Below are positions 5,214 to 35,197 of a stretch of DNA of 44,284 bases, one piece after another. The DNA lies in NCBI GenBank assembly GCA_022424815.1, contig JAKMGS010000001.1, positions 1-44,284 on the forward strand, written 5' to 3'. The stretch comes from Schleiferiaceae bacterium (lineage in GTDB: Bacteria > Bacteroidota > Bacteroidia > Flavobacteriales > Schleiferiaceae). The position numbers and the translations under genes are program-made. How positions within the stretch are numbered: position 1 is the first letter of the stretch; the number at the start of each line of letters is the position of its first letter. The notes below the pieces were generated by a model. That model saw only the letters and a list, made by a program, of their open reading frames with translations. It had not been told where the DNA came from and did not search any database.

Positions 5214-8200
5214 TTAACGTATATATATGAGCTTTTCTTGTATTGCGGCAGATTTTCCGTCAACATTTCGGGTGAATTGGACCCTAATATGGTAAAAACC
5301 AGGACCTGGGCGCCCACCTTCAATTTCCGACATTTTAAAGCTAGGCAACGAGGTCTCCGATCCTATAAGGGTTAGGCTTTCCTCCTTGTGCCATAAAATT
5401 CGGCCTTCGTTATTGAATAGGTCCATAATGAGAATTCCGCCTTCCCCACTCTCGTCGTGGCTCAGGTTGAAGTTCACCTCATCGAGGAAGGGATTTGGAT
5501 AGGCAAGTAATTGGTTTAACACCGGCTTCTCGGAATCCACCACCACGAAGGCTATGCTGTCGTAGCCCCATTGATTGAGTACGTCCCAAGCGCGCAACTC
5601 CAAGGTGTGCTCGCCGTACTCGAGGTCGTAATAAGGATAGGTGATCTTGCCGCGCGTGAAATCGTCAATGGCGCTCTGATAATAGTCGTTAACGTTAACC
5701 GGTTGCCCGTCCAAGATGAGGCTTAGGTTGTGCCCAATTCCCAATCCAACCGCATTAATACCACTCTCATCGTACAAGAATCCTAGGGCTGTAGGATCGG
5801 GATCGCTGAAGCCGCCGGACACGAAATTCGTATCATTAATGTATAGGTGCACTTCCGGTCCTTCAGTATCGGTAATCACCCCGTCGTACACACCGCCGAT
5901 CAAATGTTGACGAGAGGCGCCCCAGAAATCTCTTTCGAAATTCGTCGCATAGGCGGCAATCTTCGGGGGACCGACACTCAGGTTGATGTCCAAGGGCACG
6001 CGGAATTCAAAGGTGAATGTTCCATTGACCACCGTCGCTTGCCCCTTGAACACCGCGTTGTTTTGGGTGGTGAAGTTGAAGGCGCCGCCTCGGTTGTCGT
6101 TCGTTTTGGTTTGCACGTTTTGGACCTTGTCGTAGAACTGGAGCCATACGCGACCGTTGATGTTAGTGAGGGTTTGGCCGTTATCGTCGCGAATGCTTCC
6201 TTTGATTTGGACCCAATTCAATGCTTTAATTGTATCGCTAAATTGATCCCACGCGACCCCATTAATAGAGTCGAAAACCAATCCGTCTTCCGGCCTTGCC
6301 AGCGGCAGCGCAGCATCTCCCATGAGCGAGAATTTAATTTTATCACCGCTGATGTTGTTGTTCTTTGTTGTGCGAATCACATCTCCCAAGCGGGGTTGGT
6401 CGAGGAATAGCATATTTCTGTTGAGCAACTCGTTGAGTTGGTAGGTGCTGTTCGTGGCGAAAACGCTTCTTGTGGTCGAAAACAGTGCGATGGCACCGCC
6501 GTTTGGGTTGAGGTGAAGTTGTTCTGCAGCGCTCACTCGGTTTGGATCGTCGAATCTGGCAAATTCACAGGTGATGGTGGTAAATACCGGCAGGGTGGTT
6601 TGATTCTCCCACGTGTTGATGTCCTCGAGTTGCAATATGCGCTCTGTGGCCCAGCCTACCTCTCCCCCATGGCCGACATAGCTCACCAGGAGCGCCCCAT
6701 TTTCTACCTCGCGGAAGAGTTTTTTACGTGCTTCAGGATAGCGCTGCGATCCGGGCATGCTTTCTTGCAAGAAGGCGTCAGCATAAATCTTGATGTTATT
6801 GAGTTCGGTGCGTATGGTGTCCAATTCCTTGGTTAATCGGTCCTGTACTACTTCAAATTCTTTTTCCCAACCGTCGTCTACATCATCCGCCACCCACAAA
6901 GCGTTCATGCGCCATGGACCAAAGCGCTCCGTAGCCGTGAGGTAATGTTCGATTTTGGCCACCGCTTGTTCGGCTTGTTGAACAGTACGAACTGGGATCC
7001 TACCTATACCGATATCGAGATCATCCAAAAACCAATTCACGCTTTCATCGGCGTCCAGGTAACCGTAGTAATCATCGGTAATGTAGGAGCTATAGAGGGA
7101 AAAACTAGCCTTGGAGTGGTAGGTAGGAATGAGGTTGGATTTTGGACCCGATAATTGGCCTTTATAATCGTAGGATGCATCTCCTAAGAGGGTCAGGTAT
7201 TGCAGTTTTTCGGAGTCGTTAAATAATCGAACCAAGAACTTTCGAATAGCACCGATATCAGGGTTTCCGGTGTTCATTACATCATATATATACTCCAATG
7301 CAACTACCTCCGCGTCGATGCCCGTCGCTCGCTCTACATCCGCCAAATCATGAGCGGCACCGAGCAAGGAATCTGGAGCGATGATGATGCTTTGCGCATT
7401 GCCGAGATCAGGGTAGGTGGCTGTTGAACTGTTGTTTAAATCAACCACCTCATCCACTACATATCCGATCGACCCTACCCCAAATTTGTAAGTGCGTATT
7501 TTGTCCTCGTGTGAGTACCATCGAGCTTCGTTGGCACCCGTAATTATGGGCACAACCTTGGAAACGATACGGTTATTTTCTATTCCGAAAATGGTCAGAT
7601 CTGCACTGGCCTCGGTGGTAAAATAGGAGTAGCTATCTGCGCTTCTTGGAGCGTTAACCATGAATTTGTTGGGGCTCTGTTTTTCAGAGGATGTTTCCCA
7701 GTCCACCACCACTTCATCCAACCACATGGCAGCGGCATTATTTCCCGCCTTGTCATAGATAATCCGTAAGGTTGAACCTTGGTCTGCGGTGAACGTAGCC
7801 GTGAGGACTTTTTCTTGGACAAAGTTGCTCACGCTCCCGGTCATCACTGCTGGGAAATTTATTTGGACGGTTTGATTACCATATTCTATCCGCAGCTTGG
7901 TGTTGCTCGTACTTGCGCGGGCTACTGCTCTGATCTGGACATTGATATCCGTTCCGAGAATAGGACTGTTTTCGGAGTTGCTTTTCCCGACCGTTCTTTG
8001 GCGGAAATCATAATCTCGTTGCGTTGTGAAATCGAATAATTCTCCCATCCATCGACGACCTGTACCGACCAAATTATACATGGCGGTATCGTAGACCCAA
8101 GTGGCACGTGCGTTCAAGAATCGGGCATTAGAATCTGCCTGTTCTTGTTCCAAAGGAATGGGCTGGTATGAGGTATTTCCTCCGCTCACCAAGAAGTACT

Positions 8201-8633
8201 TCGCATCGGAATAGGCATTATCCGAATAATTCGATGCTTCGGTTGAAGGACTGTAGGTTAGATCATAGCTCGGTGGTATGTAAAACCAGTAGATGGTGCT
8301 TGCCGAAAGGGTGGTTTCATTTACATCGTAAGGGATAGAGAAATCACCGGCCATGGGCTCGTTGGAGCTGTTCATTGGGAGTAGTGCGCCCTCTAATCGG
8401 CAACGAATCTCCAATTCCTCTGTAGGATCCCCGGCTGTTAGAATGCCTAAATCTATAATCTCGCTACCGGTTAATTTATACAGCCCGCTGTGTTGGTCTT
8501 CTGCTCCGTTGAGGGCAGAAATCCGGTGGTTTAGCGTTTTGAATCGGACATAGGTACCCTCATCAAAGGACATCTGCGCCACCACGAGTACCGGACTTAA
8601 ACACACGTATAATAAGAGTACAATTCTTTTCAC
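5214..8633 (-). CDS. porU: type IX secretion C-terminal signal peptidase PorU (gingipain/C25-like)
   Basis: Contains C25-like motifs: LLGDASYDYKG, the His block SYVGHGGEVGW and the Cys block FTTITCEFARFD. Start taken at the in-frame GTG 8633, which gives the signal peptide KRIVLLLYVCLSPVLVVAQ. The ORF-track start at 8768 would overlap the divergent neighbour. Confidence 0.8.
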   Translation of the reverse strand: MKRIVLLLYVCLSPVLVVAQMSFDEGTYVRFKTLNHRISALNGAEDQHSGLYKLTGSEIIDLGILTAGDPTEELEIRCRLEGALLPMNSSNEPMAGDFSIPYDVNETTLSASTIYWFYIPPSYDLTYSPSTEASNYSDNAYSDAKYFLVSGGNTSYQPIPLEQEQADSNARFLNARATWVYDTAMYNLVGTGRRWMGELFDFTTQRDYDFRQRTVGKSNSENSPILGTDINVQIRAVARASTSNTKLRIEYGNQTVQINFPAVMTGSVSNFVQEKVLTATFTADQGSTLRIIYDKAGNNAAAMWLDEVVVDWETSSEKQSPNKFMVNAPRSADSYSYFTTEASADLTIFGIENNRIVSKVVPIITGANEARWYSHEDKIRTYKFGVGSIGYVVDEVVDLNNSSTATYPDLGNAQSIIIAPDSLLGAAHDLADVERATGIDAEVVALEYIYDVMNTGNPDIGAIRKFLVRLFNDSEKLQYLTLLGDASYDYKGQLSGPKSNLIPTYHSKASFSLYSSYITDDYYGYLDADESVNWFLDDLDIGIGRIPVRTVQQAEQAVAKIEHYLTATERFGPWRMNALWVADDVDDGWEKEFEVVQDRLTKELDTIRTELNNIKIYADAFLQESMPGSQRYPEARKKLFREVENGALLVSYVGHGGEVGWATERILQLEDINTWENQTTLPVFTTITCEFARFDDPNRVSAAEQLHLNPNGGAIALFSTTRSVFATNSTYQLNELLNRNMLFLDQPRLGDVIRTTKNNNISGDKIKFSLMGDAALPLARPEDGLVFDSINGVAWDQFSDTIKALNWVQIKGSIRDDNGQTLTNINGRVWLQFYDKVQNVQTKTNDNRGGAFNFTTQNNAVFKGQATVVNGTFTFEFRVPLDINLSVGPPKIAAYATNFERDFWGASRQHLIGGVYDGVITDTEGPEVHLYINDTNFVSGGFSDPDPTALGFLYDESGINAVGLGIGHNLSLILDGQPVNVNDYYQSAIDDFTRGKITYPYYDLEYGEHTLELRAWDVLNQWGYDSIAFVVVDSEKPVLNQLLAYPNPFLDEVNFNLSHDESGEGGILIMDLFNNEGRILWHKEESLTLIGSETSLPSFKMSEIEGGRPGPGFYHIRVQFTRNVDGKSAAIQEKLIYIR
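5275..5284 (-). repeat. GGGTCCAATT motif copy (in porU, read as V-Q-F)
   Basis: Exact 10-mer read directly. Confidence 0.9.
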
Positions 8634-20922: not shown

Positions 20923-21509
20923 AAAACCTCCTTATAGCTCTTATTACCTTAACCAGCTTGTATGCTCAAGGTCAAGTAGAAGAATTGAATCAACGCACTC
21001 AGCTATTTATTAGTGAAATAGAGGATAGATTCAAAGTAAAGTCCATCAACGGTAACGTACCAGATTACGGCGTATTACCAGAAACTGAATTTGTGCAGCA
21101 TGAATACTACCAGCTCAAGCAATTGGAGAAAGAGGTGAATGAACTGGGCAATAAAGTCAAGCCCACCTATCACCTCAGCACCTTTGCCTATGAGGATGAA
21201 GATGAAATCTTGTATGCGCTAAAGTTCTGGTTCAAGTCGTTTATAGGTGATAAACGCATGACCCCTGGACGTGATTACCGTACCGTAGACCATGTTGTAC
21301 CTGCTATTATTGTTATTGAAAAGAACTACATTTCCATCCTCACTTTGAGCTGTTATGCCACCGATATTGAAGAGTTCCGTCAATGGCGCAGTGATATGCT
21401 TGGGGTATTCGGCGGGCCAAATTCAATAGTGATTGAAATAGGCTGCAACGGACCTATCGAATGGACCAAAAATGCACCGGACCCAAAAGACACGAAGTGG
21501 CGCCGCTAA
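20919..21509 (+). CDS. hypothetical secreted protein
   Basis: Has a signal peptide (MKNLLIALITLTSLYAQGQ) and an ATGA overlap with folC. I recognise no family motif. Confidence 0.55.
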   Translation: MKNLLIALITLTSLYAQGQVEELNQRTQLFISEIEDRFKVKSINGNVPDYGVLPETEFVQHEYYQLKQLEKEVNELGNKVKPTYHLSTFAYEDEDEILYALKFWFKSFIGDKRMTPGRDYRTVDHVVPAIIVIEKNYISILTLSCYATDIEEFRQWRSDMLGVFGGPNSIVIEIGCNGPIEWTKNAPDPKDTKWRR

Positions 21510-23008
21510 CCACGCATGAGCAAGGCCTCTTTTAGATGCCCTAGTTCCATGCACTGTTCTTCTCCTAAATCCATGATGGTCATAGCGACACCAAGGACTT
21601 GGCGACGACCTCTAATGCTAATCCGAGATTCTACACAGTGCTCCACCAACCATCGGTAAACATTCTGAGGCACGAGTCCTGAAAATAATATTTCTTCTTC
21701 TGAAAGCTGAGCGTTTTGCTTGCCTTGTCTGCTCATTTGAATGGACCAAGCTTGGTGTACTCTCCGTTGTATCAAAGTGCTCGTCTCCGCAGCTTCGAAC
21801 TCCTGTCTTGGCGCGGTAATGGGCACGCAAATATCAAAGCGGTCGCGCAAGGCTGCTTGAAAGCGCTGGCGGTGATTTTCTAGCGCAATAGGCGTACACT
21901 TACAAGGTGTCTGACTATTGAAATGGCCACATGGACAAGGATTGGCGGCAGCAATACATTGAAAGGTATAAGAATCCATGGGCTTAAGTAATGCAGCACG
22001 AAAACGCTCCTTGTGTTTGAGTAATTCATCGACGATGAGAACACCTCCCAAGCTTTTAATCAAAGTGGGGACCTGCTGCGGCTTACTCGGTAGTGCATGT
22101 GCGGGTATATCGGATAAATCTTGAGCGCCCCTAGTGAAGGCTTCAATGGCATGTTCCATGAGTTCCGGGGAATTGCCAAATATGGAGGCCAATGATTGCT
22201 CCAATCGCAACGACTCACACGGACGGTCCCCCGCTCTTTTGCCTATAGCCTCACCTAAACTCTGAACCAAGGCCGTGGTACGGACATTCGGCGGCGGCAA
22301 TATCGTATGCATTCGCTCCAATAACATCGTCTTCCCCAATCCCGGCGAACCTTCTGTCCAAAGATGGTGACCGCCGGCTGCAGCCACCTCCAGCGCTCGC
22401 TTGAGCATTTCGTGGCCTTCGACTTGGGTAAAGCACAAGGCATCTTGTTGTGCGATTTGCCGTTGCTCGCTGGTGATGGGCATCTGTTGCCAGTCTTCAG
22501 CCTGTAGTACATCTATAGCGTCCTGGAGATGAACCGCTCTCCCGATGCGAAATCCCTTGGGCAACGGAGCTGTGAAGGAAAAATCCGCATCAAATTGTAA
22601 GATGATGCCCTTTTTGCCCAGCGCTATGGCCCGCGCTATGGCATTGTATGGATCGTTTGCCTTTAGGAGGGTGCCGTCCAAGCCCAGATTACCCACAATG
22701 AGGTATTGGTCGAGATCCGGAAGGTGCAGCTGGTCAGAGGCGGCAAGGATGCCTAGGGCGATGGCCAGGTCGAGTTCGTATTGGCGAATGGGAATGGGGG
22801 ATTCCTCACACTGAATGGTGATGCGCTGGCCGGGCCATCGCCAGCCATTCGAGCGCAGGGCGGTATAGACCCTATTCCGGATCTCGTTTCCAGGGCGTGC
22901 GGGGATGCCGAGCAGGTGGAACTTTATGCCGCGCGAAATATTAATTTGTAGTTGGAGCGGGGCGACACCAAGGGTGTGGGTGTGGCACGAATAGGTGGTA
23001 ATAAGCAT
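21506..23008 (-). CDS. comM: divergent YifB/ComM-family Mg-chelatase-like AAA+ protein
   Basis: The N-terminal Lon-like domain is recognisable (GIKFHLLGIP, LAIALGILAASDQ). Walker A GSPGLGKT, Walker B VLIVDE, AAANPCPCG and DRFD are present. The RPFRxPHH block and about 15 aa before the NPCPCG block look altered or absent. Confidence 0.7.
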   Translation of the reverse strand: MLITTYSCHTHTLGVAPLQLQINISRGIKFHLLGIPARPGNEIRNRVYTALRSNGWRWPGQRITIQCEESPIPIRQYELDLAIALGILAASDQLHLPDLDQYLIVGNLGLDGTLLKANDPYNAIARAIALGKKGIILQFDADFSFTAPLPKGFRIGRAVHLQDAIDVLQAEDWQQMPITSEQRQIAQQDALCFTQVEGHEMLKRALEVAAAGGHHLWTEGSPGLGKTMLLERMHTILPPPNVRTTALVQSLGEAIGKRAGDRPCESLRLEQSLASIFGNSPELMEHAIEAFTRGAQDLSDIPAHALPSKPQQVPTLIKSLGGVLIVDELLKHKERFRAALLKPMDSYTFQCIAAANPCPCGHFNSQTPCKCTPIALENHRQRFQAALRDRFDICVPITAPRQEFEAAETSTLIQRRVHQAWSIQMSRQGKQNAQLSEEEILFSGLVPQNVYRWLVEHCVESRISIRGRRQVLGVAMTIMDLGEEQCMELGHLKEALLMRG

Positions 23009-23015
23009 GGGCGTT

Positions 23016-23038
23016 GGGTTTCCAAATAAATTGGACCC
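23016..23038 (-). promoter_or_regulatory. near-palindromic element GGGTCCAATTTATTTGGAAACCC, 7 nt upstream of the comM-like ATG
   Basis: The minus strand reads GGGTCCAATT-TATT-TGGAAACCC. It is nearly identical to the element at 31371-31396 upstream of radC. Confidence 0.5.
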
Positions 23039-23076
23039 TCATTCTCAGACTTCCAAAAAGTGTGAAAAAGTAAAAG

Positions 23077-24126
23077 TTATTCGCCCTGCTTATTCGCGAG
23101 CTGCCCACAAGCTGCGTCGATATCTTGACCGCGGGAATGACGCACGGTAGCTATAATACGATGCTCCTCCAAGATTCGTTTATACATATCCACGGCCTCT
23201 TGCGATGCCTGCGTGTACGGCCCATTGTCGATGGGATTGTACTGAATGATATTCACCTTTGTCGGTATGGCGCCACAAAACTTGGCGAGGGCGATGGCAT
23301 CGGCCTCCTCGTCGTTGATTCCACGCCAAATCACATATTCAAAGGTCACTCCGCGACCTGTATTGGCGTACCAATACTGCAGACTCTCACGCAAATCCGC
23401 GAGCGTGGTGCTCTTGTGTGCGAGCGGCATGAGTTTGGCGCGCTTTTCTTCGATGGCGCTGTGCAAGGAAATGGCGAGACCAAATTTGACCTGATCGTCC
23501 GCCATTTTTTTAATGAGCTTAGGAACGCCAATGGTGCTGAGCGTGATGCGCTTTGGCGACATGCCCAATCCTTTGGGATCGGTAATTTTATCAATGGCCT
23601 GCAGAACGTTATTATAGTTCAATAACGGCTCCCCCATACCCATAAACACAATGTTGGTCAACGGGCGGTCGAAGTATTCCTTACCCTGCTCATCGATCAC
23701 GACGACTTGGTCGTAAATCTCGTCCGGGGTGAGGTTACGCATACGTTTGAGTCCGGCGGTGGCACAGAAAGTACAATCGAGGCTACACCCTACTTGCGAA
23801 CTTACACAAGCGGTAATGCGCTTCTCGGTTGGGATGAGTACAGATTCCACCATGGCCCCATCGTGCAGCTTCACCGCATTTTTGATGGTGCCGTCTTTCG
23901 AACGCTGCATGAGGTCGACCTCCAGGAGATTGAAAAAGAAATGTTCTTCGAGTAGGGCTCGGGTGGATTTGCTCAGGTTGGTCATCTCGTCAAACGACGA
24001 AGCACTCTTTTGCCACAGCCACTGATAGACTTGCTTGGCGCGAAAGGCTTTTTCGCCATTGGCCTCAAAGAATTGGACCATCTGATCCTGAGATAAGCTA
24101 CGTATGTCCCTTTTGGCGGTTTCCAT
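23077..24126 (-). CDS. rlmN: 23S rRNA/tRNA (adenine-C2)-methyltransferase RlmN (radical SAM)
   Basis: Contains the radical-SAM cluster CSLDCTFCAT, GMGEPLLN and the C-terminal DIDAACGQL. Confidence 0.9.
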   Translation of the reverse strand: METAKRDIRSLSQDQMVQFFEANGEKAFRAKQVYQWLWQKSASSFDEMTNLSKSTRALLEEHFFFNLLEVDLMQRSKDGTIKNAVKLHDGAMVESVLIPTEKRITACVSSQVGCSLDCTFCATAGLKRMRNLTPDEIYDQVVVIDEQGKEYFDRPLTNIVFMGMGEPLLNYNNVLQAIDKITDPKGLGMSPKRITLSTIGVPKLIKKMADDQVKFGLAISLHSAIEEKRAKLMPLAHKSTTLADLRESLQYWYANTGRGVTFEYVIWRGINDEEADAIALAKFCGAIPTKVNIIQYNPIDNGPYTQASQEAVDMYKRILEEHRIIATVRHSRGQDIDAACGQLANKQGE

Positions 24127-24146
24127 GTGGCAAAGATAGCGAAGCC

Positions 24147-25007
24147 TTAAGGCATATCGCGCTCTACGAGGTAGCCCATTTTACCCATTTGATAATCGCG
24201 CATGGCCTCCATGATTTCCGTTTGACTGTTCATCACGAAGGGACCATAGGTTTCCAATTTCTCTTGAATAGGCGCCGCACTCACAAAAAGAAGCTTGGTC
24301 GGCGTTGAAGGAATGAGGGTATGATGCCCTGGGACCAATTCATATAAAAAGTGCTCCTCCACCATGCCGTACCCTTCTAATCTACCGCCGCCGCTAAGCG
24401 AGTACAACAATCCATGTTCGCCTTCTTTCACCTCAAAAGTCACCGCCGCATCTGCCGCAGCCGTGCCGTGCACGCTAGAGATAGGATAGGCGCTCTGAAG
24501 CGGCCCCTTAGGACCACCTGCGATAGGAGTTCCAGCCGAAATGCGCAGGTCTTGATGACCCGCAACTTCTGGCATTTCATCTTTTTGCAACGGAATATAA
24601 TTGGGCTCCATGCCCTTGGCACGTTTGGGCAGGTTGATCCAAATCTGTACGATCTCCTGCATCCCACCTTCCTCGCAAAGCTTGGCTGGCGGACGTTCAG
24701 AGTGGATAATGCCCATACCTACGTCCATCCATTGTACGCCGCCATCATCGACCACACTGTTGTTGCCTCGGCTATCTCGATGGTGTACCCCGCCTTCCCA
24801 CATGAAGGTCACCGGCGTAAACCCGCGGTGCGGATGCGGCCCTACCCCTGCATTCCAGCGGTCCGTCCCCGGCTCCACGAAATTCGCGTGGTGGTGGATC
24901 AGCAGAAAAGGGTCGATATGTTCGACTTGTTGTGTAGGCAAGGGTTGCTTGAGGGGATGCTCCCCCATCATCACGTCGTAGGCTTGAATGGCTCTTTTCA
25001 CAGACAT
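24147..25007 (-). CDS. pirin family protein
   Basis: The cupin motif HPHRGFTPVTFMWEG is characteristic of pirins. Confidence 0.85.
   Translation of the reverse strand: MSVKRAIQAYDVMMGEHPLKQPLPTQQVEHIDPFLLIHHHANFVEPGTDRWNAGVGPHPHRGFTPVTFMWEGGVHHRDSRGNNSVVDDGGVQWMDVGMGIIHSERPPAKLCEEGGMQEIVQIWINLPKRAKGMEPNYIPLQKDEMPEVAGHQDLRISAGTPIAGGPKGPLQSAYPISSVHGTAAADAAVTFEVKEGEHGLLYSLSGGGRLEGYGMVEEHFLYELVPGHHTLIPSTPTKLLFVSAAPIQEKLETYGPFVMNSQTEIMEAMRDYQMGKMGYLVERDMP
24331..24340 (+). repeat. GGGACCAATT motif copy (in the pirin gene, antisense; sense reads L-V-P)
   Basis: Exact 10-mer read directly. Confidence 0.9.
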
Positions 25008-25008
25008 A

Positions 25009-25713
25009 TTATGCGTTTAAAATAATTGGGACCAATTCTTCCAAATGGGCAATCTCAAAAGTCAATTTCTCGTGGTGAGGCACCTGCTTAGGGTTGAAAT
25101 AGACCTGGTCAATGCCCTGCTCCCTCGCCCCAACGCAATCCGCAATGAGGTTATCACCGATCATCAAACTCTCCTTGCGCTCAGCACCGGTGAGCCGGAG
25201 GGCGCGGCGGAAAATCTTTGGATCCGGCTTGTTTACCCCCACTTGGTCACTGCAGAGCAACAAATCAAAAAGCGGCTCGAGACCACTTTCGGCAAATTTG
25301 ATGTTTTGACTTTCGTGAAAACCATTGGTTATGACATGTAAAACACAGCCTGCTGCTTTTAGTTCTTGCAATACCTCAGCGGCACTTTCAATCAAGTGGT
25401 TTTGATAGGGCGTTTCCTTAATGTAGCGGAGTTCCATCTCCCAGGCCACATCCTTAGCGCTCACCCCAAAATGCTCGAAAGTTTCGCGAAATCTAGTTTC
25501 ACGAAGGGTTTGCTTATCAATGGCCCCGGCGCGGTACAGATCCCATTTCAGGTCATTGATGGTGATGTATTTATCGAAGAACTGCTCGAAACTGGGTAAC
25601 CCTAAACCCGGCAATCCTAAATCTGCATAGAGGTTGCGCAGGGACATTTCAGAGTTTTTCTCGAAGTCCCAAAGGGTATGATCCCAATCAAAGAAGAGGT
25701 GTTTGTATTTCAC
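25009..25713 (-). CDS. HAD-superfamily hydrolase (YjjG-like nucleotidase/phosphatase)
   Basis: HAD motif I FFDWDHTLWDF, motif II ITNG and motif IV GDNLIADCVGA are present. I prefer GTG 25713, which forms a GTGA overlap with the upstream stop and puts DxD near the N-terminus. The alternative is ATG at 25752. Confidence 0.75.
   Translation of the reverse strand: MKYKHLFFDWDHTLWDFEKNSEMSLRNLYADLGLPGLGLPSFEQFFDKYITINDLKWDLYRAGAIDKQTLRETRFRETFEHFGVSAKDVAWEMELRYIKETPYQNHLIESAAEVLQELKAAGCVLHVITNGFHESQNIKFAESGLEPLFDLLLCSDQVGVNKPDPKIFRRALRLTGAERKESLMIGDNLIADCVGAREQGIDQVYFNPKQVPHHEKLTFEIAHLEELVPIILNA
25028..25037 (+). repeat. GGGACCAATT motif copy (in the HAD gene 3' end, antisense; sense reads L-V-P)
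   Basis: Exact 10-mer read directly. It is embedded in AATTGG-GA-CCAATT. Confidence 0.9.
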
Positions 25714-26642
25714 GAACGTGTGGTTTTGGGTTTTCGCCAACGCAGGTACCAAGGCAGGTTATTCTCTACGTGGAAATAGAAAGGTTCATCATGGGCGCCA
25801 AAGCCGCTGTAGAAGCGCGCCAATCCAGGAATGCTACTTCCTTCAAAATCCAATATATGGTCAGAGCCTGCGTGAAGGTGAATCATTTGATCGATGAGTA
25901 AGGTCGGTGCGCCACATTCTTTGCCGTAGCTCGAACTGGCGTTGAGCAAGAGGGTGGAACGACCATGGAATTGGACCCAAATCTGACCAGCAACCAGAGT
26001 ATTTCCCTCATCATATACGGCCAGCAGTACGCCTCTTTTCTGGTACAAGCAAAACTCCAAGACCTTGGCTAAACTATCGATGTTTTCAGCGGTAATAGCG
26101 GTCTTGTCCTGGGTATTGTGCTTCCATAAGCGCACGACATCTTGAGTAGTAGCCCATTGCGCAGATTCCAAGGAACTCTTTTGTGCCTTTTTCAGGTTGC
26201 GCTTGGTCTGCGCACTATATCCAGTGGCTAATTCCTCATACGAGGCCTTGGTGGACAAAATAAAATTTGAATACTTCTCAGGGGTCCAATGGGACGGGAA
26301 AGCCACGCCGGGTGAAAGAAAGAATTCCCCGTAGGCAAAATGTTTCATCGCTTCCTCCATCAACGCTTCTACCCACTGTGAGGACAACGGAATGGTCGAA
26401 TACGGGCCTACAGCCTGTGTCCCATAAGGACGCGTGGTAAAAGAAATGCCGTTTTTCTCTCTTGGAAACAACGGAAAAACCACTTCGTAATCCCCATAAA
26501 TAAGCGCATCCCAGGTTGGGGCTACCCAATTCAGGTACCAGCTAAATCCATAAGGTTGCGGATGTGCTGTGGCAGCCACACATCGATCCCAACGTTCGAA
26601 ATCGATCTCGGCATGTGGAATGTACTTAAGGTTTGGCCGCAT
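25710..26642 (-). CDS. FemAB-like / BioF2-like GNAT acyl(aminoacyl)transferase family protein
   Basis: The N-terminus EIDFERWDRCV...YGFSWYLNWVAPTWDALIYGDYEVVFPL resembles the FemAB-related GNAT proteins of polysaccharide loci. Start taken at MRPNLKY (26642). The assignment rests on motif memory only. Confidence 0.5.
   Translation of the reverse strand: MRPNLKYIPHAEIDFERWDRCVAATAHPQPYGFSWYLNWVAPTWDALIYGDYEVVFPLFPREKNGISFTTRPYGTQAVGPYSTIPLSSQWVEALMEEAMKHFAYGEFFLSPGVAFPSHWTPEKYSNFILSTKASYEELATGYSAQTKRNLKKAQKSSLESAQWATTQDVVRLWKHNTQDKTAITAENIDSLAKVLEFCLYQKRGVLLAVYDEGNTLVAGQIWVQFHGRSTLLLNASSSYGKECGAPTLLIDQMIHLHAGSDHILDFEGSSIPGLARFYSGFGAHDEPFYFHVENNLPWYLRWRKPKTTRS
25969..25978 (-). repeat. GGGTCCAATT motif copy (in the FemAB-like gene, read as V-Q-F)
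   Basis: Exact 10-mer read directly. Confidence 0.9.
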
Positions 26643-27936
26643 CAATAAAGGATTTATAGACCTCAGCCCAGCCCTTCCATTGGGGCTCAAATTCACTAAA
26701 CGTGCGGTTGTGCCAAACCGAGATTAACGTGCCGCCAACGGCTTTCACCACGGGTACCCATTGCTTCATCCCTGCCAAGGCTTCCTCTGCACCAACATTC
26801 AAATAGGTGTCCCCATAATAGGTCACGTCCATGAAGGCGAAAGGATGAAGGTTGAGCGGCAACTCCATCTCTAGTTCAACGTCGTAAAAGGTGTATGCCG
26901 AAGCGATGCTCGCACGGAACCCGGGCAATTCGGTGTACCCCATGCTGTGTTCGTCTTTAATGCCCAATTCTATCAAATTTCTGAATGTATGCGGCGTTCG
27001 CATGCGCAGGTAATGTTGTCGACTTTGCGTTACTGGTCGACGGACCACATCCTGCAACATCTGACGTTCATTGCCGACCACTTCCAAATCGCTATTCGAT
27101 GCGTAGCTCGGATGAATACCTAGCATAGCCCAATCTGCAATCTCTCTCAAAGTAATAGCAGCATCCTTACTATAAGGACTTACATTGCGATCTTTAGGTC
27201 CAAACTCCGCAAAGAGCATGAAGTACAATGCCTTCACATCCGAGCTCTTGTTCCAGTTACGCTGTTTTCTAAACGTATCATAGGGATCCCGGCGCCAATT
27301 TGATAGCGCTAAGGCTCTCATGCGAAACATCTTCAAATTAAATGTTATCAGATCTTTCGCAAATGCACCCACCGTTCGTAAAGCACCCTTTCCCTTGAAA
27401 GCAAACAGGTTATCAATATCAACGGTGGTCAAGTATTGGTAGCGCTGGCTTAAATCAAAAGAAGCCTCGAACCAAAGCTTGCCCAAGGCCAGCGCCCATT
27501 CATTGACCACTGGACGTTCCAAAAATTCATTCTTAAAAGCAAAACTCTCCTTGGCTGGAAAGCGTCCATGTACATCCGCAATAAAAGGGAGGTATTCCTC
27601 ATATCGCGACACCAAGAAAAAGGTGGCCGCAATAGGATCGAAAGGCAAATCGCCTACCTGACGTTGACATACGGTAGGAATCCCTTCCCATTGTCCAGCA
27701 TAGAGCTCTTGCTCCACGATATCCTGTTCCCAAATAAGTTTATGAGGAAGGATCTGAAAGATCCCTTCCATCGGGGTAGCGCTATAGTTGATTCTAAACC
27801 CCTCGGCTTGATCGAACGCTTCCATTTCCTTGTACACCACATACGACACGCCCATAGCCTTGCTCAGCAAAACCTTGGTCGCCCACCTAAACCGCGGACT
27901 ATCCTGCGTCGTATATATGGCTACTACGGCATCCAT
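26626..27936 (-). CDS. polysaccharide-deacetylase-like (CE4-related) protein with an N-terminal extra domain
   Basis: The block ATFFLVSRYEEY is followed by CE4-like motifs TVDIDN, GIHPSY, SRQHYLRM and VWHN. This is a tentative family call. Confidence 0.45.
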   Translation of the reverse strand: MDAVVAIYTTQDSPRFRWATKVLLSKAMGVSYVVYKEMEAFDQAEGFRINYSATPMEGIFQILPHKLIWEQDIVEQELYAGQWEGIPTVCQRQVGDLPFDPIAATFFLVSRYEEYLPFIADVHGRFPAKESFAFKNEFLERPVVNEWALALGKLWFEASFDLSQRYQYLTTVDIDNLFAFKGKGALRTVGAFAKDLITFNLKMFRMRALALSNWRRDPYDTFRKQRNWNKSSDVKALYFMLFAEFGPKDRNVSPYSKDAAITLREIADWAMLGIHPSYASNSDLEVVGNERQMLQDVVRRPVTQSRQHYLRMRTPHTFRNLIELGIKDEHSMGYTELPGFRASIASAYTFYDVELEMELPLNLHPFAFMDVTYYGDTYLNVGAEEALAGMKQWVPVVKAVGGTLISVWHNRTFSEFEPQWKGWAEVYKSFIDAAKP

Positions 27937-28637
27937 TGTCCTCCATTAACGTGTAGGGTTTGACCCGTGGTATACTCGCTGCCCAGCAAATAGCTGATGG
28001 CCTCTACAATCTGTTCGGGACGCCCAAAAGCGTCCATAGGGATGGTTGTTTTTACTTGGGCCAACAACTCCTCAGGCACATCATGCAACATGCCTGCGTT
28101 CATATAACCATAGGCAATGGTGTTAGCTGTGATGCCCTTCTGGGCAAGGTCGATGGCCACACCGCGCATATATCCTTCTACCGCACTCTTCGATGCCGTA
28201 TAAGCACTTGTACCGAAAGAAGGCTTGTGCGCCACCACACTACTGATGGAAATAACTCGCCCGCTCCCTTTGGCGCGCATGTGCATCAAGGCATGCTGGG
28301 TACAGCGTACGGCACTCAAGAAATTAATATCCATTAAGCGCGACATCTCCGCAGCCTCGAGCTTCCACGATGCGGCGGCATGGGCAACACCCGCATTATT
28401 AATGAGTACATCACAACCGCCGTGCTGCTCTACCCACGCAAAAAGCGCCCCTACCTCTTCATCCGAGGTCAAGTCAGCACCAAAGCACTGGCCTTCGATT
28501 CCCTCGCGCTCGCAATGCTCGCGCAAAGAATCCACCGCTCTAGTGGTCAACAACAATCGGTAGCCAAGCTTGGCTAGTTCTGGCAGCATGGCCTTCGCCA
28601 TACCCCCTCCTGCTCCAGTAAGGACTATATTTTTCAT
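27924..28637 (-). CDS. SDR-family oxidoreductase (FabG-like)
   Basis: Contains TGAGGGMA, NNAG and S...YTASK. It forms an ATGA overlap with the upstream gene. Confidence 0.85.
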   Translation of the reverse strand: MKNIVLTGAGGGMAKAMLPELAKLGYRLLLTTRAVDSLREHCEREGIEGQCFGADLTSDEEVGALFAWVEQHGGCDVLINNAGVAHAAASWKLEAAEMSRLMDINFLSAVRCTQHALMHMRAKGSGRVISISSVVAHKPSFGTSAYTASKSAVEGYMRGVAIDLAQKGITANTIAYGYMNAGMLHDVPEELLAQVKTTIPMDAFGRPEQIVEAISYLLGSEYTTGQTLHVNGGQWMP

Positions 28638-29551
28638 GCGCCTTCCGGGGTATACATGGTCACCCCGTTTGTTCTATATTCTTCTAAAAGTACCGATTTA
28701 AACAGAGATGCATCCACCAACAAACTTGGCGCCTCTCCGATACGAACGTGCTTCAACGCACCTTTGGCTTCCAATAACGGGATAAGTCCATCGCACTTGC
28801 GCTGGGCACTGACCGCCGGATTGTGCAATTTCGTCACCACATTCACCTTACGCCCTCCGACCAATACCACGGGGAAGGTCCTACTCTCCGGCAAATACAC
28901 GGGGAACGAAAAACCCTTCCAACCAATGGTATCTTCCACTGCATGCAAGCTCGTACCGCTATTGATCAGCGTGGTCCCGATGTACAACAACTGCCCGCCC
29001 GAAGCGAGGTGTTTGGTCCATGGGCTTTGCGGCCCATAGGGAGTCCCGTCGGTATGGTGACCGGTGGTATACCACTGTGCCTTTGGCCCTTTAACAGCTA
29101 CGGGTTCGAGCGGATGCGCCGATCTTGCGTCAGCCACTTCTCGGCGGAAATATTCGGTTATGGTCCCCATCTTGCTCGGGGTCTCTGCGACGCTAAAGGC
29201 CGTTTGTGGGTGCTCCGCTTGCAAGGTAATGACCGGGCTTGAGGGCATCAACAAATGCGCCTCTTCTCCCACAAGCTCCAACAAGGCTGCAACCACCGTG
29301 GCGGGACCACCTTCTACATATCCAATGGAGCTCATAGCGCTATGCACTAACAAATCTGTACCCGGCGCCACGCCAGCGGCCTTGAGGCTTTCCACGAGTG
29401 ATGCTTTGGTCCACACATCTCCCGCAGCTTTACGGGCTGCCAAGTCCTTGCGAACCTTGGCTTTTTTACGGTTTCTGTTCCATTGCAGCAGCGGCTGAGG
29501 AACCAGTGATCGAAGTATATCTTTAGCGCTCATGCTTTGCGTTCCATTCAT
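28634..29551 (-). CDS. AAC(3)-family N-acetyltransferase (aminoglycoside 3-N-acetyltransferase fold)
   Basis: DLLVHSAMSSIGYVEGGPATVVAALLELVGEEAHLLMP matches the conserved N-terminal core of the AAC(3) family. The start could instead be M7 at 29533. Confidence 0.7.
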   Translation of the reverse strand: MNGTQSMSAKDILRSLVPQPLLQWNRNRKKAKVRKDLAARKAAGDVWTKASLVESLKAAGVAPGTDLLVHSAMSSIGYVEGGPATVVAALLELVGEEAHLLMPSSPVITLQAEHPQTAFSVAETPSKMGTITEYFRREVADARSAHPLEPVAVKGPKAQWYTTGHHTDGTPYGPQSPWTKHLASGGQLLYIGTTLINSGTSLHAVEDTIGWKGFSFPVYLPESRTFPVVLVGGRKVNVVTKLHNPAVSAQRKCDGLIPLLEAKGALKHVRIGEAPSLLVDASLFKSVLLEEYRTNGVTMYTPEGA

Positions 29552-30716
29552 TTAGTAACGTATCCACTAAGTATTTGGTGGCCCAATTCGGTAATCCAAA
29601 ACTCTCATACCTCCCCCACATAGGGTAAGAACCCGGTAAGGCTCCGCCCACGTCCATCGAGGCACGTGCCCCACTGGTCGCCACGACCGAAAGCAACGTA
29701 TTCATTGTATCGCGTGCCTCCAGAGCCCAAGGCGCTCTAATCTTATGCCACAAAATGGCAAGTTGTGCTCCTCCTGTAGGAATAAAAGCTTCCGAGCCCC
29801 GCCACTGGGCATCATAGCGCCCGTGTAAGATCCCCTCCGCAAGGAATCGCTTGGCAAGTACCTCAGCGCCACCAATGGACGCATCTATATAACGTTGTTC
29901 TCCCAACCGTTGACCTGCATCAAAAAGGCCATCTAGGGTGTAGGCGATGGTATGGATGATGGGGCGATCGTTTTTATGTAAGGTATTATCACAATTCGCC
30001 AACCAATAGTGCTCGTTTTGCTGGGTTAGGACCCAATTCAAATGGTGGTGGCTATGGGCTTCCCAAGCATCACGGCATTCAGGAAATTCCGGCAACCAGT
30101 CCAAAATGGGTGCAACGACATAAGTACCGTACACCCGCACGGCGCCCATGAAATCATTGGTGGAAAACTGCCCTTGATCGTCGAGCTGGTCCCAGATCCA
30201 ATCAATGGCGCGTTTGGCCGCCTCCGCATACGCGCGATCCCCCGTATGGCGGTACAGCGGCAATAGCCCGCGCAAGATTTGTCCGGTATTAAAGACTACT
30301 GAAGGGCGCTGCTGATGCACATACCCGCCTGGCCATCCTCCATCTTCGTGTTGGATGCTCAGCAGCCATTGCCCCGCGTCCTCAGACGCAGCGCGAGCCT
30401 CTCGGGCCCAAGGAAAATTTGATTCCGTACTGTAGCGCAGCAGCGTATCGATGATGTACCCGGTGGTCTCTGGATAGGAAGAGGTCCAACCGCTGTGGTG
30501 GTAATAAGTCCCCGACCCGCGATCTGCCCCGCTATTGATGCTGTGGATGAGCCAACGCACAGCGTGGTGCATGGAGCGCTCCTTATCCGCTTCGCTATGG
30601 TGTTTGAGGTAGGATTTTAGGTACAAGCGATTGTTCCATTCAGCGAATAAATACCGCCAATGATCGTACTTTCCCAAAAACGAATGCCAACGTCGGACAT
30701 ACGCTGCTACTCCCAT
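29523..30716 (-). CDS. prenyltransferase/squalene-cyclase-repeat (alpha/alpha toroid) protein
   Basis: Has a QW-type repeat, AGQWLLSIQHEDGGWPGG, plus further aromatic/Gly-rich helical-hairpin-like blocks. The fold assignment is tentative and the function is unknown. Confidence 0.45.
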   Translation of the reverse strand: MGVAAYVRRWHSFLGKYDHWRYLFAEWNNRLYLKSYLKHHSEADKERSMHHAVRWLIHSINSGADRGSGTYYHHSGWTSSYPETTGYIIDTLLRYSTESNFPWAREARAASEDAGQWLLSIQHEDGGWPGGYVHQQRPSVVFNTGQILRGLLPLYRHTGDRAYAEAAKRAIDWIWDQLDDQGQFSTNDFMGAVRVYGTYVVAPILDWLPEFPECRDAWEAHSHHHLNWVLTQQNEHYWLANCDNTLHKNDRPIIHTIAYTLDGLFDAGQRLGEQRYIDASIGGAEVLAKRFLAEGILHGRYDAQWRGSEAFIPTGGAQLAILWHKIRAPWALEARDTMNTLLSVVATSGARASMDVGGALPGSYPMWGRYESFGLPNWATKYLVDTLLNEWNAKHER

Positions 30717-31351
30717 TACAACAATCCTTGATCTGAAAAGCTAAAGTAGCCACTACGCGCCACAATTAAGTGGTCCAAGAGCTTGATATCTAAAGTATCT
30801 GCCGCGGCACTCAACTTTCTTGTCATGCGTTTGTCATTTTCACTGGGAGCCAAGGCCCCACTGGGGTGATTGTGGGCCACGATGATGGCGGTAGCATTCC
30901 AATGCAAGGCGCGTTTGAGGATAAGCCGAACGTCGGTCAAGGTACCCGTTAAGCCGCCTTTGAATAGTTGGTGACAGGCCAGCGGCGCATGGGCTCTATT
31001 GAGGTAGAGGACGTGGAATTCTTCGTGGGCTGGGAATTCGAGGTGCTTAAAGTGGGCGTAGGCATCTTGGCTTTTCCGGATGGCGTGCTCCATAGGCTTG
31101 GGGGTGCTCCAGGCTTGGTGTAGTGCGAGTACGGCCATGATTTGCTTCGCTTTTTTGGGGCCAATTCCCTTAATCTCCCGCAGCGCATCTTCGTCCATCT
31201 GCAGGATCCGATTAAAGTCGAGAAAATACTCGTTCAACGCTTGCTCCAGCTCTTCCACACTTTGGTAGCGTGCCCCACCGTTGAGGATGTAGCTCATGAG
31301 TTTGGCCGTAGACCATTGCTGGGTCGTTTCATAAAAGGATTGTTTTTCCAT
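30716..31351 (-). CDS. radC: RadC-family JAB-domain protein (UPF0758)
   Basis: Has an N-terminal helix-hairpin-helix (EIKGIGPKKAKQIMAV) and the JAMM motif HNHPSGALAPSENDKRMT. Confidence 0.9.
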   Translation of the reverse strand: MEKQSFYETTQQWSTAKLMSYILNGGARYQSVEELEQALNEYFLDFNRILQMDEDALREIKGIGPKKAKQIMAVLALHQAWSTPKPMEHAIRKSQDAYAHFKHLEFPAHEEFHVLYLNRAHAPLACHQLFKGGLTGTLTDVRLILKRALHWNATAIIVAHNHPSGALAPSENDKRMTRKLSAAADTLDIKLLDHLIVARSGYFSFSDQGLL

Positions 31352-31370
31352 GGGGTTGAATTTTGATAAG

Positions 31371-31396
31371 GGGTTTCTAATAAATTAATTGGACCC
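31371..31396 (-). promoter_or_regulatory. near-palindromic element GGGTCCAATTAATTTATTAGAAACCC in the radC / glycosyltransferase divergent spacer
   Basis: The plus strand reads GGGTTTCTAATAAATTAATTGGACCC, against GGGTTTCCAAATAAATTGGACCC at 23016-23038. It lies 19 nt upstream of the radC ATG and 25-50 nt upstream of the GT GTG start. Confidence 0.5.
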
Positions 31397-31420
31397 AAAG
31401 AATTATCCTACTTTTAACTC

Positions 31421-32500
31421 GTGAAGATTGCTGTTCTAGGATCAAGAGGAATTCCCAACCGCTACGGCGGCTTCGAAGAGATGGCTGCCCAAGTCGCCCC
31501 ACTGTGGGTCAAGGCGGGCCATGAGGTCGTCGTCTACACTACCAGCGACCATCCCGATAAGGTGGAAGAAGTGGCCGGCGCGCGCATCAAGTACATATTC
31601 AATCCCGAGAGCACTTTCGGACTCGCGGGCCAATTCATCTACGACCTGCTCTGCATCCTCGACGCACGACGCGAAGGTTTTGACATTTACTTGCAGCTGG
31701 GCTACACCACTTCAGGCATCTGGTCCTTCCTGTGGCCGAAGAAAAAAACCATGACCAACATGGACGGGTTGGAACACCAAAGGGCCAAATACAAGGGTCC
31801 GTTGTCGATATTCTTGCGATGGTCGGAGCGCAGGGCGGCCAAACGTTCACAACTTTTAGTTGCTGACAACCCGGAGATCGCCCGCTACCTCGCCAAATAC
31901 AACAAGCCTACCCAAACCATCGCCTACGGCAGCCACGTGGTGGAGGCGTCCGAAAACGCCGCGCAGATCTTACAGGAAGCCGGCCTTCCGACCCACAACT
32001 TCCACGTTAATATTGGCCGTATACAACCAGATAACCACGTTTGGGAGATTCTTGCGGCCGCGGAAGAAAGCGGTGAAACTGTAGTGGCTATTGGAGACTA
32101 TAGCACGAGGTATGGACGGAAGCTGCGCAAAATTTTCGATGCGAAGAACCTCCATTTCCCTGGGACTATTTACGATAAAACGGTCTTGAATGCCCTGCGC
32201 ACTCAAGCGGTGTTTTACCTACATGGACACAGTGTAGGCGGTACCAACCCTGCATTGCTTGAGGCAATGGGATGTGGCGCCATGGTCTTGGCACACAACA
32301 ATCCTTTTAACGCGAGTGTCTTGGGAGGGCTGGGCGCCTTATGGTCGGATGAAGAAGAACTCAAGGAATTATTGAAGCAGCGTCCCTCAGCCGACGTGAA
32401 GGCAGAACAAGCTGAAATCTCTAAGGGGCGGGTGAAGGACTATTTTAATTGGTCCCAGATCGCAAATCAGTACCTCGAGGCCATGGCCGGCCTACAATAA
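31421..32500 (+). CDS. GT4-family glycosyltransferase with a DUF1972-type N-terminus
   Basis: MKIAVLGSRGIPNRYGGFEEMA is the DUF1972 signature, and the C-terminal GT1/GT4 block is GHSVGGTNPALLEAMGCG. It has a GTG start. Confidence 0.8.
   Translation: MKIAVLGSRGIPNRYGGFEEMAAQVAPLWVKAGHEVVVYTTSDHPDKVEEVAGARIKYIFNPESTFGLAGQFIYDLLCILDARREGFDIYLQLGYTTSGIWSFLWPKKKTMTNMDGLEHQRAKYKGPLSIFLRWSERRAAKRSQLLVADNPEIARYLAKYNKPTQTIAYGSHVVEASENAAQILQEAGLPTHNFHVNIGRIQPDNHVWEILAAAEESGETVVAIGDYSTRYGRKLRKIFDAKNLHFPGTIYDKTVLNALRTQAVFYLHGHSVGGTNPALLEAMGCGAMVLAHNNPFNASVLGGLGALWSDEEELKELLKQRPSADVKAEQAEISKGRVKDYFNWSQIANQYLEAMAGLQ
32447..32456 (-). repeat. GGGACCAATT motif copy (in the glycosyltransferase gene, antisense; sense reads N-W-S)
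   Basis: Exact 10-mer read directly. Confidence 0.9.
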
Positions 32501-34496: not shown

Positions 34497-35197
34497 GCGG
34501 AAGCGACTTCATCGAAAAAATATTGGGCCCACTCGTTGGGCCCTTTTCCGTTTGAGGCTTCGTAGGGTCCAATTTTAGTACGCCGTAACCCTACCAAATG
34601 TCCTCCACTATTCAAAGCTTTGCCAATATCATGAGCCAAGGAACGGATGTACGTGCCCTTGCTGCAGAGGACTCGCAGTTCTAATAATTGGTCCGTATAA
34701 CTAAGAATTTCTAATTCATGAATGACCACTTGACGCGGCGCCATAATTATTTCCTCACCCGCACGAGCCTTTTCGTAGGCACGAACGCCGTCCTTCTTGA
34801 TGGCAGAAAAGATCGGCGGCACTTGTGAAATCTCACCGGTAAACGCTTTCAGCGCCTCCTCTATGGTTTCTTGATTGATATGATCCGTTGGAAATTCTGC
34901 ATCGATAGCACTCTCCAAATCATAGGATGGCGTCGTTGCACCAAGCTTCACTTGTGCCACATATTCCTTAGGCAGCCCCATGAAATCTGAAATCTCCTTG
35001 GTCTTCTTTCCCACACAAATAATGAGTAGGCCTGTGGCCAACGGATCTAGGGTTCCAGCATGACCCACTTTTAGCTTTTTCTTTCCGGTGACTTTTTGAA
35101 GGGCGTACTTGATTTTAGCGACCGCGTGATAGCTCGTCCACTCTAAAGGCTTATCGACCAATAGCACTTGGCCAGAAACGATATCCTCTACGGTCAA
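34493..35197 (-). CDS. truB: tRNA pseudouridine(55) synthase
   Basis: Contains LLVDKPLEWTS and the catalytic block GHAGTLDPLATGLL. The probable start is TTG at 35197, forming a TTGA overlap with the uppP stop. The longer ORF-track N-terminus overlaps uppP by about 100 nt. Confidence 0.85.
   Translation of the reverse strand: MTVEDIVSGQVLLVDKPLEWTSYHAVAKIKYALQKVTGKKKLKVGHAGTLDPLATGLLIICVGKKTKEISDFMGLPKEYVAQVKLGATTPSYDLESAIDAEFPTDHINQETIEEALKAFTGEISQVPPIFSAIKKDGVRAYEKARAGEEIIMAPRQVVIHELEILSYTDQLLELRVLCSKGTYIRSLAHDIGKALNSGGHLVGLRRTKIGPYEASNGKGPNEWAQYFFDEVASA
34565..34574 (+). repeat. GGGTCCAATT motif copy (in truB, antisense; sense reads I-G-P)
   Basis: Exact 10-mer read directly. Confidence 0.9.

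Follow-up and report, generated by a model that had tools for sequence, protein, structure and literature searches.

We analysed a window of 44,284 nucleotides (assembly GCA_022424815.1, contig JAKMGS010000001.1, positions 1 to 44,284) from the genome of a Schleiferiaceae bacterium, a member of an uncultured marine Flavobacteriales lineage whose assembly contains 1.84 Mb and is 82% complete. Our subject is a string of eight closely packed genes on the minus strand, running from radC to a pirin gene, which an earlier sequence-only reading of this DNA had taken to be a single functional unit. Here the genes from radC through a FemAB-like transferase gene are found to be a conserved unit. The string as a whole is probably a composite transcription unit, in which an old chromosomal backbone, an amino-sugar tailoring cassette resembling the Vim system of Porphyromonas gingivalis, and neighbours present only within the genus are brought together.

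All eight open reading frames and every junction listed by the sequence-only reading are present in the sequence. Its family calls for the RadC, AAC(3)-fold, short-chain dehydrogenase/reductase (SDR), deacetylase-like, FemAB-like, HAD and pirin proteins hold in hidden Markov model searches, among homologues and in fold comparisons. The string opens with radC (30716..31351), encoding a protein of the YicR/UPF0758 type with an N-terminal helix-hairpin-helix domain and a JAB domain; the sequence TAATG is common to its stop and to the start of the following gene (30716). This second gene (29523..30716) encodes a cytoplasmic (alpha/alpha)6-toroid protein, formerly labelled the 'QW' protein, and overlaps a gene for an acetyl-CoA N-acetyltransferase of the AAC(3) fold (Antibiotic_NAT; 28634..29533) by 11 nt if the latter starts at ATG 29533, or by 29 nt if it starts at the alternative ATG 29551. 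The shorter overlap is favoured, as relatives of the protein are 296–300 amino acids long. An ATGA overlap at 28634–28637 leads to a classical, FabG-like SDR gene (27924..28637), and an overlap of 13 nt leads from there to a DUF7033 gene (26626..27936), whose product is homologous to VimE, a putative sugar-nucleotide de-N-acetylase. The next gene, overlapping by 17 nt, encodes a FemAB/VimA-like tandem-GNAT transferase with predicted aminoacyl-tRNA dependence (25710..26642), and its start at ATG 26642 agrees with the N-termini of homologues. A GTGA overlap (25710–25713) joins it to a HAD gene of the YjjG pyrimidine 5'-nucleotidase type (25009..25713); the YjjG model match starts near the DxD motif, in agreement with GTG 25713 as the start codon. 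After a 1-nt gap follows the gene for the pirin, a bicupin with PF02678 and PF05726 matches (24147..25007). The chain continues beyond 24147, with rlmN 20 nt after the pirin gene and then a comM-like gene after 68 nt. In what follows the DUF7033 and FemAB-like genes are called the cassette core, and the toroid, AAC(3)-fold and SDR genes its optional members.

To compare gene neighbourhoods across Bacteroidota, the DUF7033 protein was used as the anchor; regions representing nine further families of the order were combined with 80 named loci, taken from among at least 594 matches in species-representative genomes, and the neighbours were clustered. DUF7033 relatives are present in at least 594 species genomes. 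The recurring order is proS, an unknown gene, rpsT, radC, optionally wecB, the DUF7033 gene, optionally an AAC3-like gene and a second deacetylase gene, the FemAB-like gene, optionally an SDR gene, upp, a gene for a 159-amino-acid membrane protein and a yjjG-type HAD gene. On the same strand and at most 3 kb upstream of the DUF7033 gene, radC is found in 34 of the 65 loci with sufficient flank, and it is the first upstream gene outside the cassette in 34 of 64 informative loci. It directly adjoins the DUF7033 gene in 18 loci, and a FemAB-like gene lies downstream of the DUF7033 gene in 41 of 64. Loci of the radC-adjacent kind bear the labels Schleiferiaceae, Owenweeksia, Vicingaceae, Flavobacteriaceae and Polaribacter (Flavobacteriales) and Porphyromonadaceae and Prolixibacteraceae (Bacteroidales), and some come from metagenome-assembled genomes labelled Chitinophaga. 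A same-strand radC ahead of the deacetylase-like and FemAB-like pair occurs in at least three orders of Bacteroidia. The full order radC, toroid, AAC3, SDR, DUF7033, FemAB is repeated identically in a distant genome (locus L133), where it stands behind proS...rpsT and the toroid protein is 46% identical to ours. Whether radC is consistently joined to the cassette had been left by the sequence-only reading to a comparison of this kind. For the core the answer is positive, and the arrangement of radC, deacetylase-like and FemAB-like genes is not unique to this genome; the genes from radC through the FemAB-like gene are a conserved unit.

About half of the loci have no radC nearby, as in the Bacteroidales order lptB, DUF7033, heptose-epimerase-like gene, kdsC. 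Conversely, in genomes of the order that lack DUF7033, a YjjG-like HAD gene comes directly after radC (L137, 5873-7105, genome G088) or one gene further on (L136, genome G160), an arrangement that resembles the backbone minus the sugar cassette. The HAD protein of the window matches TIGR02254 (YjjG/YfnB) over its full length with 193 bits (cut-off 159.9), and elsewhere its gene follows upp and the small membrane-protein gene. Match and neighbourhood point to a YjjG-type nucleotidase of the backbone, not to a sugar-phosphate phosphatase of the cassette. The idea that the eight genes form one pathway fails at this gene, because it travels with upp and also with radC where the cassette is lacking. 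In the present genome, proS and rpsT lie together on another contig (G000:C13:5915-7840), and homologues of upp and of the 159-amino-acid membrane protein were not found in the 82% complete assembly. Within the genus the block from truB to comM is entirely collinear. The pirin gene adjoins the string in genus relatives only, as do rlmN and comM; its claimed membership of the unit is not borne out, and we regard it as incidental.

The DUF7033 protein matches PF23019 with 93.7 bits and, over residues 100–421, the VimE model NF053580 with an E value of 2.7e-47 (161.3 bits, a score below the equivalog cut-off). Its family is present in 51 of 151 Bacteroidota genomes, with at most one copy each, and no separate paralogue was seen. 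A full-text literature search for the name DUF7033 found no paper mentioning it. Among 45 homologues of the FemAB-like protein, PF13480 is matched by 33, PF02388 by 12 and TIGR03019 by 12, and the profile of the family matches FemX at E 0.008. TIGR03019 is also matched by VimA (PMC7468200). The AlphaFold2 model of the protein has a predicted local distance difference test score (pLDDT) of 94.2, and its best fold matches are Sbb17 and Sba18, then FemX and FemA, then the synthase domain of MprF, all of which are aminoacyl-tRNA-dependent transferases; the FemAB-like protein is predicted to be one as well. Sba18 and Sbb17 (PDB 9wqw, 9wqx, 9wqy; E ~1e-12 to 1e-11, template-modelling (TM) score 0.65–0.73) are FemAB-like aminoacyl-tRNA-dependent peptide synthases of streptothricin-type pathways, solved with the amino-sugar substrate streptothrisamine. 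In contrast to the present protein, with which they share 16–17% identity, they belong to secondary metabolism and not to a conserved chromosomal envelope locus. The relationship to VimA itself is drawn from shared family models only, since no FemAB-like neighbour was found beside the two best VimE-scoring genes (L121, L122).

The optional members of the cassette vary among loci. The toroid protein has only sub-threshold Pfam matches, to several alpha/alpha-toroid families, and its AlphaFold2 model (pLDDT 95.2) is an (alpha/alpha)6 barrel, of which the nearest PDB folds are the GH88/GH105 unsaturated-uronyl hydrolases and the AGE-type 2-epimerases (TM 0.6–0.7). On this model it is probably a cytoplasmic protein acting on a sugar. 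The 'QW' label would suggest a terpene cyclase of the squalene-hopene or class II type. This is not supported in the specific sense: PF13243 reaches 19.2 bits (cut-off 26.1), and cyclase folds rank lower (TM 0.54–0.60), behind the carbohydrate-active toroids. The toroid family has more than 2000 homologues, and all five of the sampled homologue contexts contain DUF7033 and/or radC with wecB. In the expanded cassettes of L131 (7001-14893) and L135 (5534-14843, with two DUF7033 genes), the toroid gene is accompanied by genes for an AMP-ligase, a carrier-like protein of ~85 amino acids, a GNAT protein, AAC3, DUF7033 and FemAB-like proteins and an FtsX/MacB-type permease; the ligase and carrier pair is DltA/DltC-like and hints at chemistry on acyl or aminoacyl groups bound to a carrier. 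In L134, toroid and formyltransferase genes lie opposite radC-wecB-DUF7033-FemAB.

The AAC(3)-like protein matches PF02522 with 146 bits, which establishes membership of the fold family only. Against the NCBIfam AAC_3 model it scores 96.4 bits (cut-off 270), all subtype models are far below their cut-offs, and its PDB relatives include AAC(3) enzymes and FrbF (E ~1e-16). The SDR protein matches PF00106 with 149.8 bits and falls below the cut-off of every NCBIfam equivalog model. AAC3-like genes occur in 10 and SDR genes in seven of the 90 anchored loci, and their positions vary: before the DUF7033 gene in the present string, and elsewhere between or after the DUF7033 and FemAB-like genes; the SDR genes lie either ahead of the DUF7033 gene or behind the FemAB-like gene. 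In three Fluviicola-type loci (L141, L142, L143), genes for relatives of the AAC(3)-like protein with 45–49% identity stand in another conserved order: rpmE, a gene for a WG_beta_rep protein of ~705 amino acids, (a gene for a TonB_C-like protein), Antibiotic_NAT and an enoyl-CoA hydratase gene.

The sequence-only reading had not recognized the gene set as a described pathway, but its core corresponds to one step, that of VimE/VimA, in the Wbp/Vim linking-sugar pathway of P. gingivalis and Tannerella forsythia, in which VimE, VimA and VimF take part (Veith et al. 2020, PMC7468200). In the chemistry proposed for that pathway, a UDP-amino sugar loses its 2-N-acetyl group and then gains an amino acid (PMC7468200). 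The present locus resembles it in that a VimE-family protein adjoins a FemAB-family, TIGR03019-like transferase, in that the same chemistry can be proposed, and in that the phylum has type IX secretion, with porU in the window. There are also several differences. The order is reversed here, deacetylase then transferase, and the leader gene is radC, not recA as in P. gingivalis. The DUF7033 protein is ~30% identical to VimE-like proteins, and its family also exists in genomes without PorU. Toroid, AAC(3)-fold and SDR genes are additional here, and related loci add an AMP-ligase with a carrier protein, a formyltransferase or a second deacetylase. Furthermore, outside the genus there is no conserved neighbour equivalent to VimF. 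The conserved genes from radC to the FemAB-like one represent the Vim-type system of amino-sugar tailoring in a new form.

The composite transcription unit that we propose would have three layers. The first would be a Bacteroidia-wide backbone, (proS-rpsT-)radC ... upp-membrane protein-yjjG, from which upp and the membrane-protein gene would have been lost in this genus, rpsT having parted from radC. The second would be the Vim-like amino-sugar tailoring cassette, embedded immediately behind radC, and the third the genus-only neighbours pirin, rlmN and comM. From the homologies, folds and synteny given above we infer likely substrates, an order of steps and a destination for the product. The DUF7033/VimE-like de-N-acetylase would expose the amino group of an N-acetylated hexosamine, which at this point is probably a UDP-sugar, and the FemAB/VimA-like transferase would re-acylate the freed amine with an amino acid taken from an aminoacyl-tRNA. 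In many lineages wecB, the UDP-GlcNAc 2-epimerase gene, lies immediately upstream of the cassette core, which makes derivatives of UDP-GlcNAc or UDP-ManNAc the likely substrate. The toroid, AAC(3)-fold and SDR proteins, whose genes stand here where those lineages have wecB, may carry out lineage-specific tailoring. The product would most likely be a modified N-aminoacyl amino sugar for an outer-membrane glycan.

A full-length gene for the type IX secretion sortase, porU (5223..8492, minus strand), lies in the same window, 18 kb from the string, and its product matches NF033707 with 878.8 bits (cut-off 420). Because of this gene a linking-sugar role for type IX secretion is possible, and in organisms that have this secretion system, including the present one, the cassette product may be the acceptor sugar of PorU. 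Work on type IX secretion has led to the conclusion that different Bacteroidota must use different linking-sugar pathways (PMC11969387), and the route is known only for Porphyromonas and Tannerella. For marine and environmental Bacteroidia such pathways have a concrete candidate in the VimE/VimA-like pair, of which at least 594 species genomes carry relatives. With interchangeable modules around it (toroid, AAC(3)-fold, SDR, AMP-ligase with carrier protein, formyltransferase, second deacetylase), the pair may generate variation of N-acyl amino sugars on the surface of Bacteroidia.

Several observations weigh against this interpretation. The 161.3 bits of the DUF7033 protein lie far below the VimE equivalog cut-off of 440, which none of the 151 Bacteroidota genomes reaches (best score, 314 bits). 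Its C-terminal half has no Pfam match, CE4 included, and a sequence search against solved structures up to E 1 gave no match. For VimE itself, deacetylase activity has been deduced from genetics and a domain prediction rather than assayed (PMC7468200). The FemAB-like protein of the window has, when searched alone, no above-threshold family match, and its assignment comes from homologues and a predicted fold. The AAC(3)-like clade is not dedicated to the cassette, as three relatives with 45–49% identity occur in an unrelated context. Moreover, capping of the amino acid's amine by the AAC(3)-like enzyme would leave a product unable to accept PorU cargo. A strict linkage to type IX secretion is not supported by presence and absence: VimE-like protein and PorU occur together in 45 of the 151 genomes, the VimE-like protein only in six, PorU only in 64 and neither in 36, a tally confounded by phylogeny, and the link is weak. 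Finally, co-transcription of the string from radC to the pirin gene is something we infer.

RadC is, to our knowledge, a near-universal bacterial protein of unknown role, and the phenotype of the radC102 mutant has reportedly been reassigned to another gene. The protein of the window matches PF04002 with 131.6 bits and TIGR00608 with 146 bits, above the cut-off of 133.85; its N-terminal helix-hairpin-helix and UPF0758_N matches are weak. The JAMM motif HxHx7SxxD, read in the sequence as HNHPSGALAPSEND, is intact, and the gene is present in a single copy in the genome. RadC might be a working enzyme of the pathway, its JAMM site serving as a metallo-amidase on an N-acyl or N-aminoacyl sugar or on a carrier-bound intermediate of the DUF7033 and FemAB-like pair. 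It could, for example, edit or release an aminoacyl or acyl group on the sugar or carrier, and conservation of the operon would reflect common chemistry. Besides the intact motif, the attachment of radC to the cassette is in keeping with this: in 17 of the 34 radC-bearing loci the gene upstream of radC is not rpsT, and radC is still joined to the cassette; rpsT is retained beside the cassette without radC in just two loci; the radC stop overlaps or abuts the DUF7033 start in seven; and in the present genus radC moved with the cassette, proS and rpsT being on the other contig. That RadC has no established function (PMC4474612) is also in keeping with it. However, shared chemistry is disfavoured because about half of the cassette loci, including the Bacteroidales lptB-DUF7033-kdsC variant, have no radC nearby, because radC is a single housekeeping copy with a DNA-type helix-hairpin-helix N-terminus, and because genomes without the cassette still have radC followed by yjjG. 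In addition, radC of Escherichia coli and Bacillus subtilis adjoins quite different genes (PMC4474612), and the vim genes of P. gingivalis follow recA, not radC (PMC3663753).

We consider a catalytic part for RadC in the pathway unlikely, an unproven idea of low probability that is nevertheless testable; if it were true, the Bacteroidia operon would give the first functional handle on RadC, and since radC keeps its place ahead of the cassette, an envelope-related role could be tested cheaply by genetics. RadC is the ordinary, full-length housekeeping copy, and we think that it shares expression rather than chemistry with the cassette, as in the composite unit set out above, where it would have promoter and mRNA in common with the cassette genes. 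The position of vim behind the DNA-repair gene recA is a precedent, of no known functional meaning, for a DNA-repair gene leading such a cassette. In B. subtilis the housekeeping radC likewise rides with envelope or morphogenesis genes, in a maf-radC-mreBCD-minCD operon that has known internal promoters (PMC4474612). In E. coli the order yicR-rpmB-rpmG-mutM stands beside dfp-dut, with pyrE nearby, so that the gene is near ribosomal-protein and pyrimidine-nucleotide genes, comparable with rpsT, upp and yjjG here. In both species the partner genes themselves are entirely different from those of the present locus.

A product other than an envelope glycan can also be imagined, namely a mycothiol-like cytoplasmic small molecule, such as a low-molecular-weight thiol or a similar glycoside. 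Its sequence of steps would fit the GT4-type glycosyltransferase, HAD, deacetylase-like, aminoacyl transferase and N-acetyltransferase proteins encoded in and around the string, all of which look cytoplasmic. We hold this to be very unlikely. The glycosyltransferase gene (31421..32500, plus strand), which is divergent from radC and Cps2T-like (NF046071, 150.7 bits, below the cut-off of 500), is syntenic within the genus only, the HAD protein is the YjjG nucleotidase of the backbone, and the N-acetyltransferase is optional. That this genome, like most of the order, has a homologue of the bacillithiol synthase BshC indicates that a thiol pathway exists already, and the wecB, lptB, kdsC and heptose-epimerase-like neighbours of the cassette point to envelope glycans. 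The BshC homologue (G000:C187:451-1851, minus strand) shows a two-piece model match in one frame of ~519 amino acids and scores ~262, just under the cut-off of 265.8, whereas the order's other families score 325–485. BshC seems to be divergent in this genus.

The sequence-only reading had argued from tight packing to one functional unit. A crude longest-ORF gene call across the genome gives ~91% coding sequence, a median same-strand gap of 6 nt, and gaps of at most 1 nt in 40.8% of 802 same-strand junctions. The string from radC to pirin is the longest tight run of the genome (eight genes, compared with six for the runner-up), and when gaps were shuffled among junctions a run of at least seven tight junctions arose in 5.7% of trials. 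The length of the run exceeds chance only marginally, and packing alone is weak evidence for a functional unit, synteny being the stronger and decisive line; since the genome packs 41% of its junctions equally tightly, the argument from packing does not carry. These figures, and the genus-only neighbourhood of pirin, rlmN and comM, would suit eight unrelated genes juxtaposed by chance and tight only since the whole genome is tight. As an account of the string this is highly improbable, because the order of the radC, DUF7033, FemAB-like and HAD genes is conserved across orders and the six-gene order from radC to FemAB recurs in a distant genome. Chance juxtaposition is refuted by synteny for radC through the FemAB-like gene and still stands for pirin. 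That the AAC(3)-like gene confers aminoglycoside resistance and the cluster is a resistance island, as the 146-bit Antibiotic_NAT match and the AAC(3) relatives in the PDB might suggest, is almost certainly wrong: its 96 bits (cut-off 270) leave it below every NCBIfam AAC(3) cut-off, the chromosomal locus is conserved in housekeeping synteny with no mobile-element genes nearby, and FrbF has the same fold serving in biosynthesis.

The absence of a hairpin terminator inside the string, noted by the sequence-only reading, agrees with our scan, in which terminator-like sites do not exceed shuffled expectation. From radC to pirin an Rfam search gave no match, no TAnnTTTG box (the Bacteroidota -7 box) was present, and no sigma-70-like sites beyond shuffled expectation were found, a sigma-70 scan being of little value in Bacteroidota. 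In the 10.5 kb scanned on the minus strand (21000 to 31500), the sole TAnnTTTG box is TATCTTTG at 24131..24138, located by the pattern scan in the gap between pirin and rlmN, where it likely marks the end of the transcription unit. This box ends 4 nt before the rlmN ATG and would yield a leaderless or near-leaderless rlmN transcript.

At the other end of the string, radC and the divergent glycosyltransferase gene are separated by a spacer of 69 nt that contains the element GGGTCCAATTAATTTATTAGAAACCCC (31370..31396, minus strand). We read it directly in the sequence and regard it as a putative promoter or operator of the string; an element resembling it lies ahead of the comM-like gene (23015-23038). 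The 3' block TTAnnTTAnTAnnnAACC of the radC element, ~25 nt ahead of the radC ATG, is conserved in genus relatives; the GGGTCCAATT half is not conserved in them and is an abundant genomic word, with 93 copies genome-wide compared with 3.5 expected. A loose regular-expression search for the radC/comM element was uninformative, because half of the element is this abundant word. The word GGNCCAATT (reverse complement AATTGGNCC) has 695 copies in 1.84 Mb (~56 expected) and makes up half of the element common to radC and comM; its variants account for all of the most frequent 10-mers in the genome. Copies in the window lie at 31387-31396, 23029-23038, 34565-34574, 25969-25978 and 26282-26290. Genome-wide, copies are found pointing either way with respect to genes, and 13% of them are intergenic; the word could be an uptake-sequence-like or architectural one.

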